A DNA stretch of 23,785 bases from IMG/VR virus record IMGVR_UViG_2734482546_000011. One strand, 5' to 3'. This stretch comes from a virus (Duplodnaviria > Heunggongvirae > Uroviricota > Caudoviricetes). Both the position numbers and the translations under genes were made by a program. How positions within the stretch are numbered: the stretch's first letter is position 1; the number at the start of each line of letters is the position of its first letter. Below, piece after piece: positions 860-23,785 of this stretch. Below the pieces are notes generated by a model, which was not told where the DNA came from, did not search any database, and saw only the letters and a program-made list of their open reading frames with translations.

Positions 860-1080
860 TTATCATTTTGCGGGTCCTTTCCGGCGATCCGACAGGTTAC
901 GGGGCGGAAGGCGCGCGGGTTTTCGCTATTTATGACAATTTTCCGGTTTAAGGCGTTTCCGTTCTTCTTCGCCGTAACCTAATGTTTTTATTTAAAACAC
1001 CCCCTGAAAAGAAAGGAAACGACAGGTGCTGAAAACGGGCTTTTTGGCCTCTGTCGTTTCCTTTCTCTGTTTTTGTCCGT
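860..1080. other. cos DNA-packaging site: cosQ-like region (about 860-890), cosN (902-913), cosB with Nu1-binding repeats R3 (about 951-970), R2 (about 1007-1025, inverted) and R1 (about 1051-1068)
   Basis: Flanking sequence closely matches the lambda right-end/left-end junction as I recall it (CCGACAGGTTACG | 12-mer | CGCGGGTTTTCGCTATTTATG...). The CGTTTCC(T)TTCT-type R elements lie directly upstream of nu1. Confidence 0.85.
902..913. other. cosN 12-nt cohesive-end segment, GGGCGGAAGGCG
   Basis: Located by alignment of conserved flanks with lambda cos. The first six bases match lambda GGGCGG; the last six differ (see findings). Confidence 0.6.
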
Positions 1081-1090
1081 GGAATGAACA

Positions 1091-1610
1091 ATGGAAGTCA
1101 ACAAAAAGCAGCTGGCTGACATTTTCGGTGCGAGTATCCGTACCATTCAGAACTGGCAGGAACAGGGAATGCCCGTTCTGCGAGGCGGTGGCAAGGGTAA
1201 TGAGGTGCTTTATGACTCTGCCGCCGTTATAAGATGGTATGCCGAAAGGGATGCTGAAATTGAGAACGAAAAGCTGCGCCGGGAAGTTGAAGAACTGCGG
1301 CAGGCCAGCGAGACAGATCTCCAGCCAGGGACTATTGAGTACGAACGCCATCGACTTACGCGTGCGCAGGCCGACGCACAGGAGCTGAAAAATGCCAGAG
1401 ACTCCGCTGAAGTGGTGGAAACCGCATTCTGTACTTTCGTGCTGTCGCGGATCGCAGGTGAAATTGCCAGTATTCTCGACGGGATCCCCCTGTCGGTGCA
1501 GCGGCGTTTTCCGGAACTGGAAAACCGACATGTTGATTTCCTGAAACGGGATATCATCAAAGCCATGAACAAAGCAGCCGCGCTGGATGAACTGATACCG
1601 GGGTTGCTGA

Positions 1611-1636
<26 letters not shown>
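1091..1636 (+). CDS. nu1: Terminase small subunit gpNu1, 181 aa
   Basis: Near-identical over its full length to lambda Nu1 as recalled (MEVNKKQLADIFGASIRTIQNWQEQGMPVLRGGGKGNEVLYDS...); N-terminal HTH; directly downstream of cosB. Confidence 0.97.
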
Positions 1637-5317
<3,681 letters not shown>

Positions 5318-8101: not shown

Positions 8102-8500
8102 ATGACGAAAGATGAACTGATTGCCCGTCTTCAGGAGCTGGGTGAGCAATTGAACCGCGATGTCAGTTTGACGGGAACGAAAGAAGAACTGGCGCTTCGT
8201 GTGGCAGAGCTGGAAGAAGAGCTTGATGACACGGATGAAACTGCCGGTCAGGACACCCCTCTCAGCCGGGAAAATGTGCTGACCGGGCATGAAAATGAGG
8301 TGGTATCAGCGCAGCCGGATACCGTGATTCAGGATACGGCTGAACTGGTCACGGTCGTGGCACTGGTGACGCTGCATACTGATGCACTTCACGCCACGCG
8401 GGATAAACCTGTGGCATTTGTGCTGCCGGGAACGGCGTTTCGTGTCTCTGCCGGTGTGGCAGCCGAAATGACAGAGCGCGGCCTGGCCAGAATGCAATAA
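8102..8500 (+). CDS. FI: DNA-packaging accessory protein gpFI, 132 aa
   Basis: Matches lambda FI (MTKDELIARLQELGEQLNRDVSLTGTKEELALRVAELEEELDDTDE...). GGAGG Shine-Dalgarno at 8093-8097. Confidence 0.95.
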   Translation: MTKDELIARLQELGEQLNRDVSLTGTKEELALRVAELEEELDDTDETAGQDTPLSRENVLTGHENEVVSAQPDTVIQDTAELVTVVALVTLHTDALHATRDKPVAFVLPGTAFRVSAGVAAEMTERGLARMQ

Positions 8501-16405: not shown

Positions 16406-19400
16406 ATGGGTAAAGGCAGCAGTAAGGGGCATACCCCGCGCGAAGCGAAGGACAACCTGAAGTCCACGCAGCTGCTGAGTGTGATCGATGCCATCAGCGA
16501 AGGGCCGGTTGAAGGTCCGGTGGATGGATTAAAAAGCGTGCTGCTGAACAGTACGCCGGTGCTGGACAATGAGGGGAATACCAACATCTCCGGCGTCACG
16601 GTGGTGTTCCGGGCAGGTGAGCAGGAGCAGTCACCGCCGGAGGGATTTGAATCCTCCGGCTCCGAGACGGTGCTGGGTACGGAAGTGAAATATGACACGC
16701 CGATCACCCGGACCATCACGTCGGCAAACATTGACCGACTGCGTTTTACCTTCGGTGTACAGGCACTGGTGGAAACCACCTCAAAGGGAGACAGGAATCC
16801 GTCTGAAGTTCGCCTGCTGGTTCAGATACAGCGTAACGGTGGCTGGGTGACGGAAAAAGACATCACCATTAAGGGCAAAACCACCTCGCAGTATCTGGCC
16901 TCGGTGGTGGTGGATAACCTGCCGCCGCGCCCGTTTAATATCCGGATGCGCAGAATGACGCCGGACAGCACCACAGACCAGCTGCAGAACAAAACGCTCT
17001 GGTCGTCATACACCGAAATCATCGATGTGAAACAGTGCTACCCGAACACGGCACTGGTCGGCGTACAGGTGGATTCGGAGCAGTTCGGCAGCCAGCAGGT
17101 GAGCCGTAATTATCATCTTCGCGGGCGCATTCTGCAGGTGCCGTCGAACTATAATCCGCAGACGCGGCAATACAGCGGTATCTGGGACGGAACGTTAAAA
17201 CCGGCATACAGCAACAACATGGCCTGGTGTCTGTGGGATATGCTGACCCATCCGCGCTATGGCATGGGGAAACGTCTTGGTGCGGCAGATGTGGATAAAT
17301 GGGCGCTGTATGTCATCGGCCAGTACTGTGACCAGTCGGTGCCGGACGGCTTTGGCAGCACGGAGCCGCGCATCACCTGTAATGCCTGGCTGACCACACA
17401 GCGCAAGGCGTGGGATGTGCTCAGTGATTTCTGCTCGGCGATGCGCTGTATGCCGGTATGGAACGGGCAGACGCTGACGTTCGTGCAGGACCGACAGTCG
17501 GATAAGGTGTGGGCCTATAACCGCAGTAATGTGGTGATGCCGGATGATGGCGCGCCGTTCCGCTACAGTTTCAGCGCCCTGAAAGACCGCCATAATGCCG
17601 TTGAGGTGAACTGGATTGACCCGGATAACGGCTGGGAGACGGCGACAGAGCTTGTGGAGGATACGCAGGCCATTGTCCGTTACGGTCGTAACGTCACGAA
17701 GATGGATGCCTTTGGCTGTACCAGCCGGGGGCAGGCACACCGCGCCGGGCTGTGGCTGATTAAAACGGAACTGCTGGAGACGCAGACCGTGGATTTCAGC
17801 GTGGGTGCTGAAGGGCTTCGTCATGTACCGGGCGATGTCATTGAAATCTGCGATGATGACTATGCCGGTATCCGCACCGGCGGGCGCGTGCTGGCGGTGA
17901 ACAGCCAGACCCGGACGCTGACGCTCGACCGTGAAATCACGCTGCCATCCTCCGGCACCACGCTGATAAGCCTGGTTGACGGGCAGGGGAATCCGGTCAG
18001 CGTGGAGGTCCAGTCCGTCACCGACGGCGTGAAGGTAAAAGTGAGCCGTGTTCCTGACGGTGTTGCTGAATACAGCGTGTGGGGGCTGAAGCTGCCGACG
18101 CTGCACCAGCGATTGTTCCGCTGCGTGAGNNNNNNNNNNNNNNNNNNNNNNNNNNNNNNNNNNNNNNNNNNNNNNNNNNNNNNNNNNNNNNNNNNNNNNN
18201 NNNNNNNNNNNNNNNNNNNNNNNNNNNNNNNNNNNNNNNNNNNNNNNNNNNNNNNNNNNNNNNNNNNNNNNNNNNNNNNNNNNNNNNNNNNNNNNNNNNN
18301 NNNNNNNNNNNNNNNNNNNNNNNNNNNNNNNNNNNNNNNNNNNNNNNNNNNNNNNNNNNNNNNNNNNNNNNNNNNNNNNGCTGACAGTCCGGGCAGTAAA
18401 TGCGTGGGGGCAGCAGGGCGATCCGGCGTCGGTATCGTTCCGGATTGCCGCACCGGCAGCGCTGTCGCGGATTGAGCTGACGCCGGGCTATTTTCAGATA
18501 ACCGCCACGCCGCATCTTGCGGTTTATGATCCGACGGTACAGTTTGAGTTCTGGTTCTCGGAAAAGCGGATTGCGGATATCAGGCAGGTTGAAACCACAG
18601 CACGCTATCTTGGCACGGCGCTGTACTGGATAGCCGCCAGTATCAATATCAAACCGGGCCATGATTATTACTTTTATATCCGCAGTGTGAACACCGTTGG
18701 CAAATCGGCATTCGTGGAGGCTGTTGGTCAGCCGAGTGATGATGCATCCGGTTATCTGGATTTTTTCAAAGGCGAGATAGGGAAAACCCATCTGGCTCAG
18801 GAGCTGTGGACGCAGATTGATAACGGTCAGCTTGCGCCTGACCTGGCTGAAATCAGGACGTCCATTACGGATGTCAGCAATGAAATCACGCAGACCGTCA
18901 ATAAGAAACTGGAAGACCAGAGTGCGGCAATTCAGCAGATACAGAAGGTTCAGGTTGATACAAATAATAACCTGAACAGCATGTGGGCTGTGAAGCTGCA
19001 GCAGATGCAGGACGGACGCCTTTATATCGCGGGTATTGGTGCCGGTATTGAGAACACCCCTGACGGCATGCAGAGTCAGGTGCTGCTGGCGGCGGACAGG
19101 ATTGCGATGGTTAATCCTGCGAATGGCAACACAAAACCGATGTTTGTTGGTCAGGGCGATCAGATATTCATGAACGACGTGTTCCTGAAACGCCTGACGG
19201 CCCCCACCATTACCAGCGGTGGAAATCCATCGGCATTTTCCCTGACTCCGGACGGAAAGCTGACCGCTAAAAATGCGGATATCAGTGGCAGTGTGAATGC
19301 GAACGCCGGGACGCTCAACAATGTCACGGTAAATGAAAACTGTACGATTAAGGGCATGCTGGAGGCGACTCAGGTCAGAGGTGACTTCGTTAAAGCTGTA

Positions 19401-19811
19401 TCCAAATCATTTCCGAAACAGGCTGGTACGTGGGGTAACACGGAAACACCAAACGGGACGGTTACAGTCACCATAAGCGATGATCATAACTTTGACCGCC
19501 AGATTATTATTCCGCCCATTATTTTTAACGGTATAGCGTATGACGATCCGGGGAGCGGAAATAACCCAGGAGGCACGCGATACACGGGTTATGGTTTTGA
19601 AGTTCGCAAAAACGGCGTATTAATCGCATCCAGAGAAACTAAAGGTGCCATTCCCGGTAGTTACAGTGCAGTTATTGATATGCCTAGTGGTGGTGGTAGC
19701 GTCACTCTGGAGTTTAAGATTTTCCAGAAAGGCAATCAGGGGGCAGGCAATATCACCGACTGTACGGTGATTGTGACCAAAAAAGCGGCTTCCGGCATCA
19801 GTATTCGTTGA
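16406..19811 (+). CDS. J: Central tail fibre / tail tip attachment protein gpJ (host specificity protein), interrupted by an N run at 18130-18369
   Basis: N-terminal roughly 575 aa and the segment after the gap (…[25 protein letters not shown]…[27 protein letters not shown]) match lambda J. Stop TGA at 19809-19811. Frame before the gap (start 16406) and frame after it (ending at 19811) differ, so the true length of the gap is not a multiple of 3 as represented. Confidence 0.88.
18130..18369. other. Run of 240 N (unknown or masked sequence) inside J
   Basis: Literal n characters in the sequence. Confidence 1.
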
Positions 19812-19833
19812 AATATTTATAACCCCAATAAAT

Positions 19834-19857
19834 GGCGTCAGGAATGACGCCTTTTTT
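19834..19857 (+). terminator. Rho-independent terminator downstream of J
   Basis: GGCGTCA-GGAA-TGACGCC hairpin followed by TTTTTT, 23 nt after the J stop. Confidence 0.75.
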
Positions 19858-19881
19858 ATTGCAGAAAAGCGAGAGGTAATT

Positions 19882-20762
19882 ATGCGTAAAGTTTGTGCAG
19901 CCATTTTGTCCGCAGCCATTTGCCTGGCCGTATCCGGTGCGCCTGCATGGGCGTCTGAACATCAGTCCACGCTGAGCGCGGGGTATCTTCATGCCCGGAC
20001 CAACGTTCCCGGCAGTGATGATCTGAACGGGATTAACGTGAAATACCGTTATGAGTTTACGGATACGCTGGGGCTGGTGACGTCATTCAGCTATGCAGGA
20101 GACAAGAATCGCCAGCTGACCCGTTACAGCGATACCCGCTGGCATGAAGATTCCGTGCGTAACCGCTGGTTCAGCGTGATGGCGGGGCCGTCTGTGCGCG
20201 TGAATGAATGGTTCAGCGCGTATGCGATGGCGGGTGTGGCTTACAGCCGTGTGTCGACTTTCTCCGGGGATTATCTCCGCGTAACTGACAACAAGGGGAA
20301 AACGCACGACGTGCTGACCGGAAGTGATGACGGTCGCCACAGCAACACGTCTCTGGCGTGGGGAGCTGGCGTGCAGTTTAACCCGACCGAATCCGTGGCC
20401 ATTGATATTGCTTATGAAGGCTCNNNNNNNNNNNNNNNNNNNNNNNNNNNNNNNNNNNNNNNNNNNNNNNNNNNNNNNNNNNNNNNNNNNNNNNNNNNNN
20501 NNNNNNNNNNNNNNNNNNNNNNNNNNNNNNNNNNNNNNNNNNNNNNNNNNNNNNNNNNNNNNNNNNNNNNNNNNNNNNNNNNNNNNNNNNNNNNNNNNNN
20601 NNNNNNNNNNNNNNNNNNNNNNNNNNNNNNNNNNNNNNNNNNNNNNNNNNNNNNNNNNNNNNNNNNNNNNNNNNNNNNNNNNNNNNNNNNNNNNNNNNNN
20701 NNNNNNNNNNNNNNNNNNNNNNNNNNNNNNNNNNNNNNNNNNNNNTCGGTTATAAATTCTGA
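19882..20762 (+). CDS. lom: Outer-membrane protein Lom (Ail/Lom/OmpX family beta-barrel; lysogenic-conversion moron), 3' part interrupted by an N run
   Basis: Signal peptide MRKVCAAILSAAICLAVSGAPAWA and the following 180 aa match lambda Lom. After the N run the sequence GGT TAT AAA TTC TGA (GYKF stop) matches the Lom C-terminus but in a different frame from the 5' part. GAGAGG Shine-Dalgarno at 19871-19876. Confidence 0.85.
20424..20745. other. Run of 322 N inside the 3' part of lom
   Basis: Literal n characters. Confidence 1.
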
Positions 20763-20788
20763 TTAGCCAGGTAACACAGTGTTATGAC

Positions 20789-20816
20789 AGCCCGCCGGTT
20801 CAGGCGGGCTTTTTTG
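20789..20816 (+). terminator. Rho-independent terminator downstream of lom
   Basis: AGCCCGCC-GGTTCA-GGCGGGCT hairpin followed by TTTTTT, about 27 nt after the lom stop. Confidence 0.8.
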
Positions 20817-20826
20817 TGGGGTGAAT

Positions 20827-23785
20827 ATGGCAGTAAAGATTTCAGGTGTACTGAAAGACGGCACAGGAAAACCGGTACAGAACTGCACAATCCAGCTGAA
20901 AGCAAAACGTAACAGCACCACGGTGGTGGTGAACACGCTGGCCTCAGAAAATCCGGATGAAGCCGGGCGTTACAGCATGGACGTTGAGTACGGTCAGTAC
21001 AGCGTTATTCTGTTGGTGGAAGGATTCCCGCCGTCACATGCCGGGACCATCACCGTGTATGAAGATTCCCGACCCGGTACGCTGAATGATTTTCTCGGTG
21101 CCATGACGGAGGATGATGCCCGTCCGGAGGCTCTGCGCCGTTTTGAACTGATGGTGGAAGAGGTGGCGCGTAACGCGTCCGCGGTGGCACAGAACACGGC
21201 AGCCGCGAAGAAGTCAGCCAGTGATGCCGGCACATCTGCCCGTGAGGCGGCAACCCATGCGACTGATGCTGCAGGCTCAGCGCGTGCAGCCAGCACGTCA
21301 GCCGGACAGGCCGCGACTTCGGCTCAGGAGGCGTCTTCCAGCGCAGGAACGGCATCAACAAAGGCCACTGAAGCATCAAAAAGTGCTGCCGCTGCAGAGT
21401 CCTCAAAAAGCGCGGCGGCCACCAGTGCCGGTGCGGCGAAAACGTCAGAAACGAATGCTGCAGCGTCACAAAAATCAGCAGCCACTTCTGCATCCACTGC
21501 GACAACGAAAGCGTCAGAAGCCGCCACTTCAGCCAGAGATGCGGCGGCCTCCAAAGAGGCGGCAAAATCATCAGAAACGAACGCCTCCACAAGCGCCAGC
21601 AGTGCAGCCTCCTCGGCAACGGCGGCAGGAAATTCCGTGAAGGCGGCAAAAACGTCCGAGACGAATGCTAAGTCTTCTGAAACGGCAGCGGAACAGAGCG
21701 CCTCAGCTGCGGCAGACTCTGAGACAGCAGCTGCATCATCGGCCCGTGAGGCGTCCATTAAGGCAGAGGAGGCAGCAGTCAGTGCCACCGCCGCCGGAAA
21801 ATCGGCAGAAAGCGCCGCATCATCCGCTTCAACAGCCACAACGAAGGCTGGCGAAGCCACTGAACAGGCCAGCGCAGCAGCGAGGTCTGCTTCCGCAGCG
21901 AAGACATCCGAAACGAACGCGAAAGCGTCGGAAACCAGCGCAGAATCCTCAAAAACGGCTGCCGCATCGTCCGCCAGTTCGGCGGCGTCATCGGCATCAT
22001 CTGCGTCTGCTTCAAAAGATGAGGCGACCAGACAGGCGTCAGCAGCGAGGGGCAGCGCCACGACGGCATCCACGAAGGCGACAGAGGCTGCTGGCAGTGC
22101 GGCAGCGGCNNNNNNNNNNNNNNNNNNNNNNNNNNNNNNNNNNNNNNNNNNNNNNNNNNNNNNNNNNNNNNNNNNNNNNNNNNNNNNNNNNNNNNNNNNN
22201 NNNNNNNNNNNNNNNNNNNNNNNNNNNNNNNNNNNNNNNNNNNNNNNNNNNNNNNNNNNNNNNNNNNNNNNNNNNNNNNNNNNNNNNNNNNNNNNNNNNN
22301 NNNNNNNNNNNNNNNNNNNNNNNNNNNNNNNNNNNNNNNNNNNNNNNNNNNNNNNNNNNAGTTCAGCTCAGCAGTGCGACTAACAGCACTTCCGAGTCAC
22401 AGGCGGCAACGCCAAAAGCCGTTAAGGCCGCGTATGACCTGGCTAACGGGAAATACACCGCACAGGACGCTACGACAGCACAAAAAGGAATTGTCCAGCT
22501 CAGTAGTGCAACCAACAGCACATCTGAAACGCTTGCTGCGACACCGAAAGCAGTGAAAGCAGCTAATGACAATGCGAATGGTCGGGTACCTTCTGCCCGT
22601 AAGGTGAATGGTAAGGCGCTTTCAGCGGATATAACACTGACGCCGAAAGATATTGGTACGCTTAACTCAACAACAATGTCATTCAGCGGTGGTGCTGGTT
22701 GGTTCAAATTAGCAACGGTAACCATGCCACAGGCGAGTTCTGTTGTTTCAATTACGTTGATTGGTGGCGCTGGATTTAACGTGGGGTCACCTCAACAGGC
22801 AGGTATATCTGAACTTGTTTTACGTGCAGGTAATGGTAATCCGAAGGGGATTACTGGTGCTTTATGGCAGCGCACATTGACAGGGTTTACAAATTTTGCC
22901 TGGGTTAATACATCTGGTGATACTTACGATATTTACGTTGCAATCGGAAATTATGCGACTGGTGTAAATATTCAATGGGATTATACCAGTAATGCCAGCG
23001 TGACGATTCATACGTCACCAGCATATTCTGCTAATAAGCCGGAAGGGTTAACGGACGGTACAGTTTATTCACTCTATACGCCATCAGAGCAGTTTTATCC
23101 GCCTGGCGCACCAATCCCGTGGCCATCAGATACCGTTCCGTCTGGCTATGCCCTGATGCAGGGGCAGGCTTTTGACAAATCTGCATACCCGAAACTTGCA
23201 GCGGCTTATCCGTCAGGCGTGATCCCTGATATGCGTGGCTGGACGATTAAGGGCAAACCTGCCAGTGGTCGGGCCGTATTGTCTCAGGAACAGGACGGCA
23301 TTAAATCGCATACCCACAGCGCCAGCGCATCCAGTACGGATTTGGGGACGAAAACCACATCGTCGTTTGATTACGGCACTAAATCCACGAATAACACTGG
23401 TGCGCATACCCATAGTTTAAGTGGCAGCACGAATGCAGCTGGTAATCACAGCCATAGAGATGGCCGTCGATTTAACCCCAGTGTTTTTAAAGATACTTAT
23501 CAATATGGTTATACAAGCTCAGGTCAAAATACCTGGGGTGTACAAGGCTCAGTAGGTATGTCTACGGGGTGGTTAGCGAATACCAGTATAGATGGTAATC
23601 ATAGCCATTCACTGTCCGGCACAGCAGCATCTGCAGGTGCACACGCGCATACTGTCGGTATTGGTGCTCATACGCACTCCGTTGCGATTGGTTCACATGG
23701 ACACACCATCACCGTTAACGCTGCTGGTAACGCGGAAAACACCGTCAAAAACATCGCATTTAACTATATTGTGAGGCTTGCATAA
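20827..23785 (+). CDS. stf: Side tail fibre protein Stf, interrupted by an N run at 22110-22359; stop TAA at the window end
   Basis: N-terminus [37 protein letters not shown]... matches lambda Stf. Long Ala/Ser/Thr-rich shaft with recurring AAKTSETNA units. After the gap, in another frame, a duplicated [22 protein letters not shown] fibre motif and a C-terminal region with HxH repeats ending [11 protein letters not shown]. The expected tfa gene would lie beyond the window. Confidence 0.85.
22110..22359. other. Run of 250 N inside stf
   Basis: Literal n characters. Confidence 1.

Follow-up and report, generated by a model that had tools for sequence, protein, structure and literature searches.

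Does a lambda-type cos site in which most of the cohesive end's right half differs from that of lambda still represent a functional packaging site? This question is raised by the DNA analysed here, a 23,785 nucleotide stretch (IMG/VR record IMGVR_UViG_2734482546_000011, hereafter the window) that holds part of a prophage only. Gap-free alignment with the deposited lambda genome (PV340536.1) placed GGGCGGAAGGCG at window positions 902–913 opposite the lambda sequence GGGCGGCGACCT, and direct reading gave CCGACAGGTTACG (889–901) and CGCGGGTTTTCGCTATTTATG (914–934) as its flanks. Cohesive-end bases 7, 8, 9, 10 and 12 are unlike those of lambda and bases 1–6 and 11 (C) are alike, so that 7 of 12 positions are identical. 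An initial annotation made from the sequence had positioned this 12-mer by its conserved flanks and had reported five of the last six bases changed, from CGACCT to AAGGCG; the alignment bears out the placement, the coordinates, the lambda sequence used and the extent of the change. The same annotation had named alignment as a check, and lambda's own 12-mer is absent from the window at the aligned site. As identity to lambda between 700 and 1100 is 94.3% (23 mismatches in 401 bp), five mismatches in six bases are far denser than the background, and a rough estimate of the probability that any 6-bp window in the 401 bp would hold at least five of the 23 mismatches is approximately 4 × 10⁻⁴.

The elements surrounding the altered block are those of lambda. 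The 7-bp packaging-termination element cosQ (GGGTCCT, 872–878, plus strand; bp -30 to -24 from the top-strand nick) is the same as in lambda and lies at the same offset, and in a sample of loci selected by their Nu1 protein, and hence chosen independently of cosN, columns -29, -28, -25 and -23 to -21 were invariant; the role of cosQ has been described previously (PMC4669245; PMC9026076). The cosN core, read directly and by lambda alignment as the 12-bp cohesive end plus a CG on each side, occupies 900–915, and from the homologous sites of lambda and of N15 (record note; PMC9026076) the nicks are predicted to lie at 901/902 on the top strand and 913/914 on the bottom strand. CG dinucleotides are present at both predicted nicks (C900-G901 and C914-G915); this flanking CG has been reported as conserved (PMC4669245) and was conserved in the Nu1-selected sample too. 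On the plus strand the left half of cosN, GGGCGG (902–907), is invariant in all 41 distinct cos segments scored from that sample, and is followed by the right half AAGGCG (908–913; lambda CGACCT), in which C11 at window position 912 is common to both sequences. Within cosB, the critical TerS (Nu1) binding site R3 (AGGCGTTTCCGTTCTT, bp 50–65, extent according to PMC9026076) lies at 951–966 on the plus strand, and the 16-bp R sequence CTGTCGTTTCCTTTCT occurs as R2 at 1010–1025 on the minus strand and, by direct reading and lambda alignment, as R1 at 1051–1066 on the plus strand. Lambda R2 and R1 are one and the same 16-mer (PMC9026076), as they are in the window. R3, R2 and R1 are all identical to those of lambda, there is no indel between cosN and R3 relative to lambda, bp 13–34 are identical and the architecture and spacing are the same; the window is set apart by an A35C change in the spacer and a few changes between R3 and R2. 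The locus thus combines the left half, both CG dinucleotides, the cosQ offset, the R3/R2/R1 spacing and adjacent Nu1 and then A genes expected of a lambda-like cos, and it has the pattern of a right-half variant, in that its cosN changes are confined to bp 7–12 and spare the left half, both adjoining CG dinucleotides and cosQ. The A-to-C change at window position 936 (cos bp 35) falls in an otherwise invariant cosN-R3 spacer (TATTTATGACAATTTT), and C at this position is common to 10 AAGGCG loci and one CGACCT locus.

The genes downstream of cos are similarly close to lambda. Nu1, encoding the small terminase subunit TerS (1091–1636, plus strand; 181 aa), is 98.3% identical to lambda Nu1 and starts, like its counterpart in the lambda record used, with an ATG at cos bp 190, and A, encoding the large subunit TerL, the cosN-nicking endonuclease (1611–3536, plus strand; 641 aa), specifies a protein 99.4% identical to lambda gpA, from which it differs by T151S, D185E, L404R and T466I. 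The view that Nu1 and A are essentially lambda-like, taken in the initial annotation, therefore stands. From Nu1 to I every morphogenesis gene is full length with 94–100% amino-acid identity to lambda, and J is full length with a C-terminal third diverged from that of lambda. Nothing in the packaging module looks decayed. The window itself seems to form one end of IMG/VR contig UViG_2667527914_000011. At the host-range end of the window (18381–23782) the C-terminal third of J is 59% and lom 41% identical to lambda, with side tail fibre genes matching in part. As the products of Nu1 to I, like the N-terminal half of J, remain 94–100% identical, the receptor-binding parts appear to have been swapped.

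To determine how common the allele is, a 45-mer spanning the variant block was used, for which a megablast seed is possible only if that block is present. Of 5,426 complete E. coli genomes, 158 gave hits, at a total of 169 places of which four matched at 100%, and the lambda equivalent gave hits at 8,401 places in 4,481 complete E. coli genomes. AAGGCG was the second commonest allele in every collection in which alleles were compared; it occupied 8 of the 77 loci in the Nu1-selected sample and was present in approximately 78 IMG/VR viral contigs and 31 metagenome contigs. Its share of lambda-like cos sites is about 2% in complete E. coli genomes, about 10% beside lambda-type Nu1 in IMG/VR and nearly half on plasmids. 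In PLSDB 23 plasmids carry the variant, most of them non-mobilizable and close to 46 kb in size; E. coli, Shigella sonnei, E. albertii and E. fergusonii are their sources, and the allele is also carried by Escherichia sp. E1V33. Two phage records contain the same 12-mer, YDC107_1 (classified Ravinvirus) and PhiR46_1, the latter treated here as a transmissible phage solely on the basis of the host field of its record (ECOR13). The exact 45-mer also lies in E. coli strain 582, inside an apparently complete lambdoid prophage with exo/bet/gam, repressor, O/P, Q and lysis genes and Nu1-J, the sole marked pseudogene being ren.

These occurrences bear directly on the possibility that the block is an artefact at the cohesive ends, whether of assembly, as had been suggested, or of sequencing. 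Apart from the general property of cos sites that reads of linear virion DNA end there, nothing was found in favour of an artefact, whereas hundreds of independent assemblies, finished chromosomes and plasmids among them, contain the identical 12-mer, and several unrelated flanks surround it. The suggestion is refuted by these data, and we regard an artefactual origin as virtually impossible.

A scan of genome contigs across species returned 11 loci only. Four of these consist of a lambda cos fragment alone, 97–99.8% identical to lambda and with no other lambda sequence, in assemblies of Raphidiopsis brookii (L147, 2226–2626), Aeromicrobium sp. (L148, 2213–2614), Alicyclobacillus fastidiosus (L150, a ‘plasmid’, 1834–2233) and Archangium violaceum (L149, 5246–5505). 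The fragments in these non-enteric assemblies are approximately 400 bp long, or approximately 260 bp in Archangium violaceum, and look like contamination by the cos cassette of cosmid or fosmid vectors. In a full-text literature search for the 12-mer the sole match was an unrelated plant paper.

To place AAGGCG among other alleles, sequences were scanned with the flanks held fixed (ACGGGGCGG......CGCGGGTTTTCGC) and bp 7–12 left free. Among the matches listed from IMG/VR there were at least 112 CGACCT, at least seven AAGGCG and at least one CGACCG, and targeted scans recovered CAGGCG (4), CAGACG (3), CTGACG (1), TGACCT (2), AGACCT (2), GAGCGT (2), AAGCGT (1), AAGGCT (1) and CAACCT (1); the corresponding bases of N15 are CGTCCG. 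The idea that no intermediates exist between CGACCT and AAGGCG was ruled out by the targeted scans, which yielded CAGGCG, CAGACG, CTGACG, CGACCG and others. A chain of observed alleles can be drawn from lambda to the variant (CGACCT, CGACCG, CAGACG, CAGGCG, AAGGCG), in which the step from CGACCG to CAGACG comprises three substitutions or a compensating insertion and deletion. Among the 41 distinct segments of the Nu1-selected sample the only variable columns from bp -3 to +34 are 7, 8, 9, 10 and 12, a count that is partly circular for bp 13–25 in that segments without the canonical right flank, which have single changes such as G14T, were set aside. Columns 7–10 and 12 change together as a block. 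Single-step variants are rare within each major class, with about six contigs around CGACCT, which is not quite as free drift at bp 7–12 predicts. The G14T change itself (…CGACCTCTCGGG…) was seen in three IMG/VR loci with the canonical CGACCT (L239, L272 and L282); since it alters the reportedly conserved CG at the bottom-strand nick, these may be weakened cos sites.

The AAGGCG block occurs together with lambda-type, 21-like and N15/Monarch-like cosB/TerS and with at least 10 left-flank haplotypes, and four of four allele combinations were seen between the block and the SNPs at -5, -10 and +35. This diversity of cosB/TerS types, left flanks and allele combinations indicates that the block has recombined into many backgrounds. 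At one locus (L061, cos +189 onward) AAGGCG precedes a TerS that is chimeric, its N-terminal DNA-binding domain being 21-like and its C-terminus lambda-like, and a lambda-like gpA comes next. At another (L084, cos +146 onward) it precedes an N15/Monarch-like TerS, and no recognisable lambda-type TerL was found within 3.5 kb after that gene. Two simple origins for the block were considered. A small inversion of the lambda block was rejected, since it would give the reverse complement, AGGTCG, and not AAGGCG. The AAGGCG hexamer occurs again at window positions 950–955 (cos bp 49–54), at the start of cosB R3, but copying of the block from cosB is not favoured, as a 6-mer has a probability of about 10% of matching by chance on one or other strand of some 200 bp and the allele also occurs with cosB types lacking the hexamer in the first 100 bp or so after cosN; its presence in R3 is probably due to chance.

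If AAGGCG demanded a terminase adapted to it, residues of gpA or Nu1 should follow the allele. None did so in gpA (14 variant-linked sequences compared with 35 others) or in Nu1 (15 compared with 51), the variable columns of both proteins being either common to both allele classes or rare private changes. Nu1 proteins identical to that of the window adjoin both alleles (21 canonical, four variant), and the RefSeq TerS WP_000453567.1 was found both in a chromosomal prophage and in a phage-plasmid. In favour of a gpA or Nu1 that specifically recognises AAGGCG, four residues of the window gpA are unlike those of lambda, and one of these changes, L404R, falls in the nuclease region; R404, however, was found in only three of the 14 variant-linked gpA sequences, those of the window, of L005 (apparently the window's own contig) and of L013. 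Co-evolution of the terminase, already thought unlikely in the initial annotation, is thus extremely improbable. The L404R change (window 2820–2822; IDSQRDRYE compared with IDSQLDRYE in lambda) is non-conservative, was confined to the same three loci among those examined and shows no general association with the cosN allele. It lies three residues from D401, which we take to be a catalytic Asp of the nuclease, and could affect the window's own copy of gpA.

In a larger set, the pN/pS of the A gene was 0.048 beside AAGGCG (44 full-length sequences) and 0.042 beside CGACCT (31 sequences), and pS was 0.074 between the classes compared with 0.076 and 0.064 within them. As pN/pS is similar and pS between classes is no larger than within, the terminase adjoining the variant is under the same strong purifying selection and belongs to the same gene pool. 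In a first sample, full-length lambda-like gpA was encoded at 14 of the 16 variant loci with enough sequence, and the gene was disrupted at 13 canonical loci.

Published genetics indicates that the two halves of cosN differ in their tolerance of change. Differences at bp 7–12 have been described as ‘common’ among lambda-like phages (Feiss 2015, PMC4669245), N15 and phiD326 differing from lambda at two of these positions (bp 9 and 12) and Gifsy-1 at three (bp 8, 9 and 11) (PMC4669245). According to PMC4669245, many right-half mutations have a minimal phenotype whereas their symmetric counterparts in the left half have severe effects (Xu & Feiss 1991), with G2C, a left-half mutation, lowering yield approximately 10-fold (Xu & Feiss 1991), and the asymmetry depends on the proximity of cosB (Hang et al. 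2001). With lambda TerL, yields from cosN-lambda and cosN-N15 were equal (120 and 132 pfu per cell, respectively; PMC4669245, Table 4). These experiments concern single and double changes (bp 9 and 12 in N15) compared with five in the window allele, and efficient cutting of a right-half variant by a lambda-type TerL has been shown for the N15 allele only (PMC4669245, Table 4); for AAGGCG the indications are indirect, namely the intact and selected terminase genes that adjoin it and the occurrence of identical Nu1 proteins beside both alleles. The window allele retains the elements found conserved in the published studies, namely bp 1–6, both CG dinucleotides, cosQ and R3, together with C11. 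The context of its bottom-strand nick, 5'-CG|CG, is that of N15 (CG|CG; CG|AG in lambda), and the variant and lambda 12-mers are equal in GC content (10 of 12 bases) and similar in predicted Tm (52.8 against 51.2°C).

Impaired packaging had been put forward as one consequence of the block change, and in its fuller form this reading holds that cosN is inactivated or weakened and that this prophage and similar ones are on the way to becoming cryptic. Five simultaneous changes beside the bottom-strand nick, a fall in symmetric pairs within the 16-bp core from five to four and the failure to find any sequence ending at the nick are in its favour. Against it, the allele is widespread, the adjoining terminase genes are intact and selected as strongly as those beside the canonical allele, gpA is full length at the 14 of 16 variant loci given above and disrupted at 13 canonical ones, and all 20 morphogenesis genes of the window have their full length. 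Moreover, an apparently complete prophage carries the allele, as do phage-plasmids of E. coli, Shigella sonnei, E. albertii and E. fergusonii and a deposited phage whose record lists a separate host, and right-half changes are known to be tolerated (PMC4669245). Impairment is not supported by these data and is very unlikely. The explanation that we favour, with considerable confidence, is that 872–1066 is the complete lambda-type cos of a lambda-like prophage and that 902–913 is a natural, very probably functional cosN allele. Among phage sequences searched from bp 1, viral sequences and the 31 metagenome contigs, none of those with the allele was found to begin or terminate at a predicted nick, so that cleavage at AAGGCG is inferred, as are the nick positions and the packaging competence of this prophage.

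By homology to lambda, a functional AAGGCG site would be expected to work as follows. TerS (Nu1) bound at R3 would position one TerL (gpA) on the right half of cosN, with a second TerL on the left half, and two nicks 12 bp apart would be made, in the top strand after G901 and in the bottom strand at 913/914. The resulting virion ends would be a left overhang of 5'-GGGCGGAAGGCG and a right overhang of 5'-CGCCTTCCGCCC, and because these are perfectly complementary, cyclisation after injection would be normal. Bases 7–12 would be largely free to change because the bottom-strand nick would be set by the TerS-cosB anchor rather than by base reading; the left half, C11 and the CG at each nick would stay fixed. 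Drift in a diverged lineage of lambda-like phages is the probable origin of AAGGCG. The linking alleles CGACCG, CAGACG and CAGGCG persist at low frequency, and recombination inside the invariant core has since carried AAGGCG from one packaging module to another; its abundance is greatest in N15-like phage-plasmids with a head module of lambda type.

Comparison with named systems places AAGGCG among other right-half variants. N15, with cosN GGGCGGCGTCCG, and phiD326 have lambda-like 12-nt 5' ends with changes in the right half only (bp 9 and 12); N15 shares G12 with the window allele but carries two changes compared with five; its cosB is simple, with one R3 only, and its TerL is only approximately 65% identical to that of lambda, in contrast to the lambda-type cosB and terminase of the window. 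The coliphages mEp213 and LLS carry CGCGCT (GGGCGGCGCGCT), which differs from lambda at bp 9 and 10 (PMC12315714). These phages and Salmonella phage Gifsy-1 are right-half variants too, with other and fewer substitutions and, according to the respective papers, different head/terminase modules (PMC4669245; PMC12315714). The AAGGCG 12-mer itself is shared by the N15-like (Ravinvirus) phage-plasmids YDC107_1, PhiR46_1 and pEC21Z151-46K, together with a lambda-type cosB and Nu1/A, although their left flank differs from that of the window at bp -5 and -10. E. coli plasmids with the allele include NZ_CP101200.1 (L307, 19788–19832). In the plasmid that was examined, protelomerase, RepA, cB/cro/Q-type control and lysis genes are followed by the variant cos with a lambda-type terminase and a full lambda-like head and tail module, a combination of backbone and module that identifies it as an N15-like phage-plasmid. 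These phage-plasmids are linear-plasmid prophages with protelomerase and RepA, whereas the closest chromosomal relative of the window, that in strain 582, is an integrated lambdoid prophage. Plasmid-borne copies account for 16 of the 169 places with the variant (about 9.5%) compared with 20 of 8,401 with the canonical allele (0.24%), so that a plasmid location is some 40 times likelier for AAGGCG. N15-like phage-plasmids may be a reservoir of the allele.

The initial annotation had also proposed that the ends would be incompatible with those of lambda-type cos, and as sequence logic this is right, since 7 of 12 positions would pair. As the ends of any one phage come from a single site, the mismatch matters only for hybrid chromosomes cut from two cos alleles. 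In an experiment of this kind two mismatches caused a fourfold loss of yield and both alleles emerged in the progeny (Feiss 2015, PMC4669245). AAGGCG and CGACCT might accordingly be cohesive-end compatibility types under frequency-dependent selection, or the block might spread as a cassette of about 12 bp through heteroduplex formed at unlike ends. Positive frequency-dependent selection would then keep the types uniform because chromosomes of mixed allele cyclise poorly, and AAGGCG would be native to N15-like phage-plasmids and mark a partly isolated gene pool. Such a process would add to the explanation favoured above and would not replace it. The two abundant alleles five differences apart with rare single-step neighbours, the absence of linkage between the block and SNPs 5–35 bp away, the strong plasmid enrichment and the fourfold yield loss are all in keeping with it. 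The A gene, however, is undifferentiated between the allele classes and so gives no sign of isolated gene pools, old haplotypes shuffled in a mosaic phage population explain the pattern equally well, and hybrid cos-to-cos chromosomes need mixed concatemers, which may be rare. On balance, selection or spread of this kind is unlikely. If it did operate, the sticky-end sequence would be a previously unrecognised barrier to, or conduit for, exchange among co-resident lambdoid phages, and a new question is posed only if the two-peak distribution of alleles proves to be maintained by selection.

Judged by its sequence and distribution, AAGGCG is a real and recurrent allele, very probably functional, and a further member of the documented right-half class. 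It is ordinary in being a common natural variant in a part of cosN already known to tolerate change. For annotation, GGGCGGAAGGCG ought to be accepted as a valid cohesive end of the lambda type, as cos finders that use the literal lambda 12-mer miss the phages and phage-plasmids that carry AAGGCG. For the lambda-like phages more generally, the known tolerance of the right half of cosN, so far two or three changes, would be extended to five of six, and a tolerance of five changes fits a bottom-strand nick set by TerS at cosB and not by base recognition.
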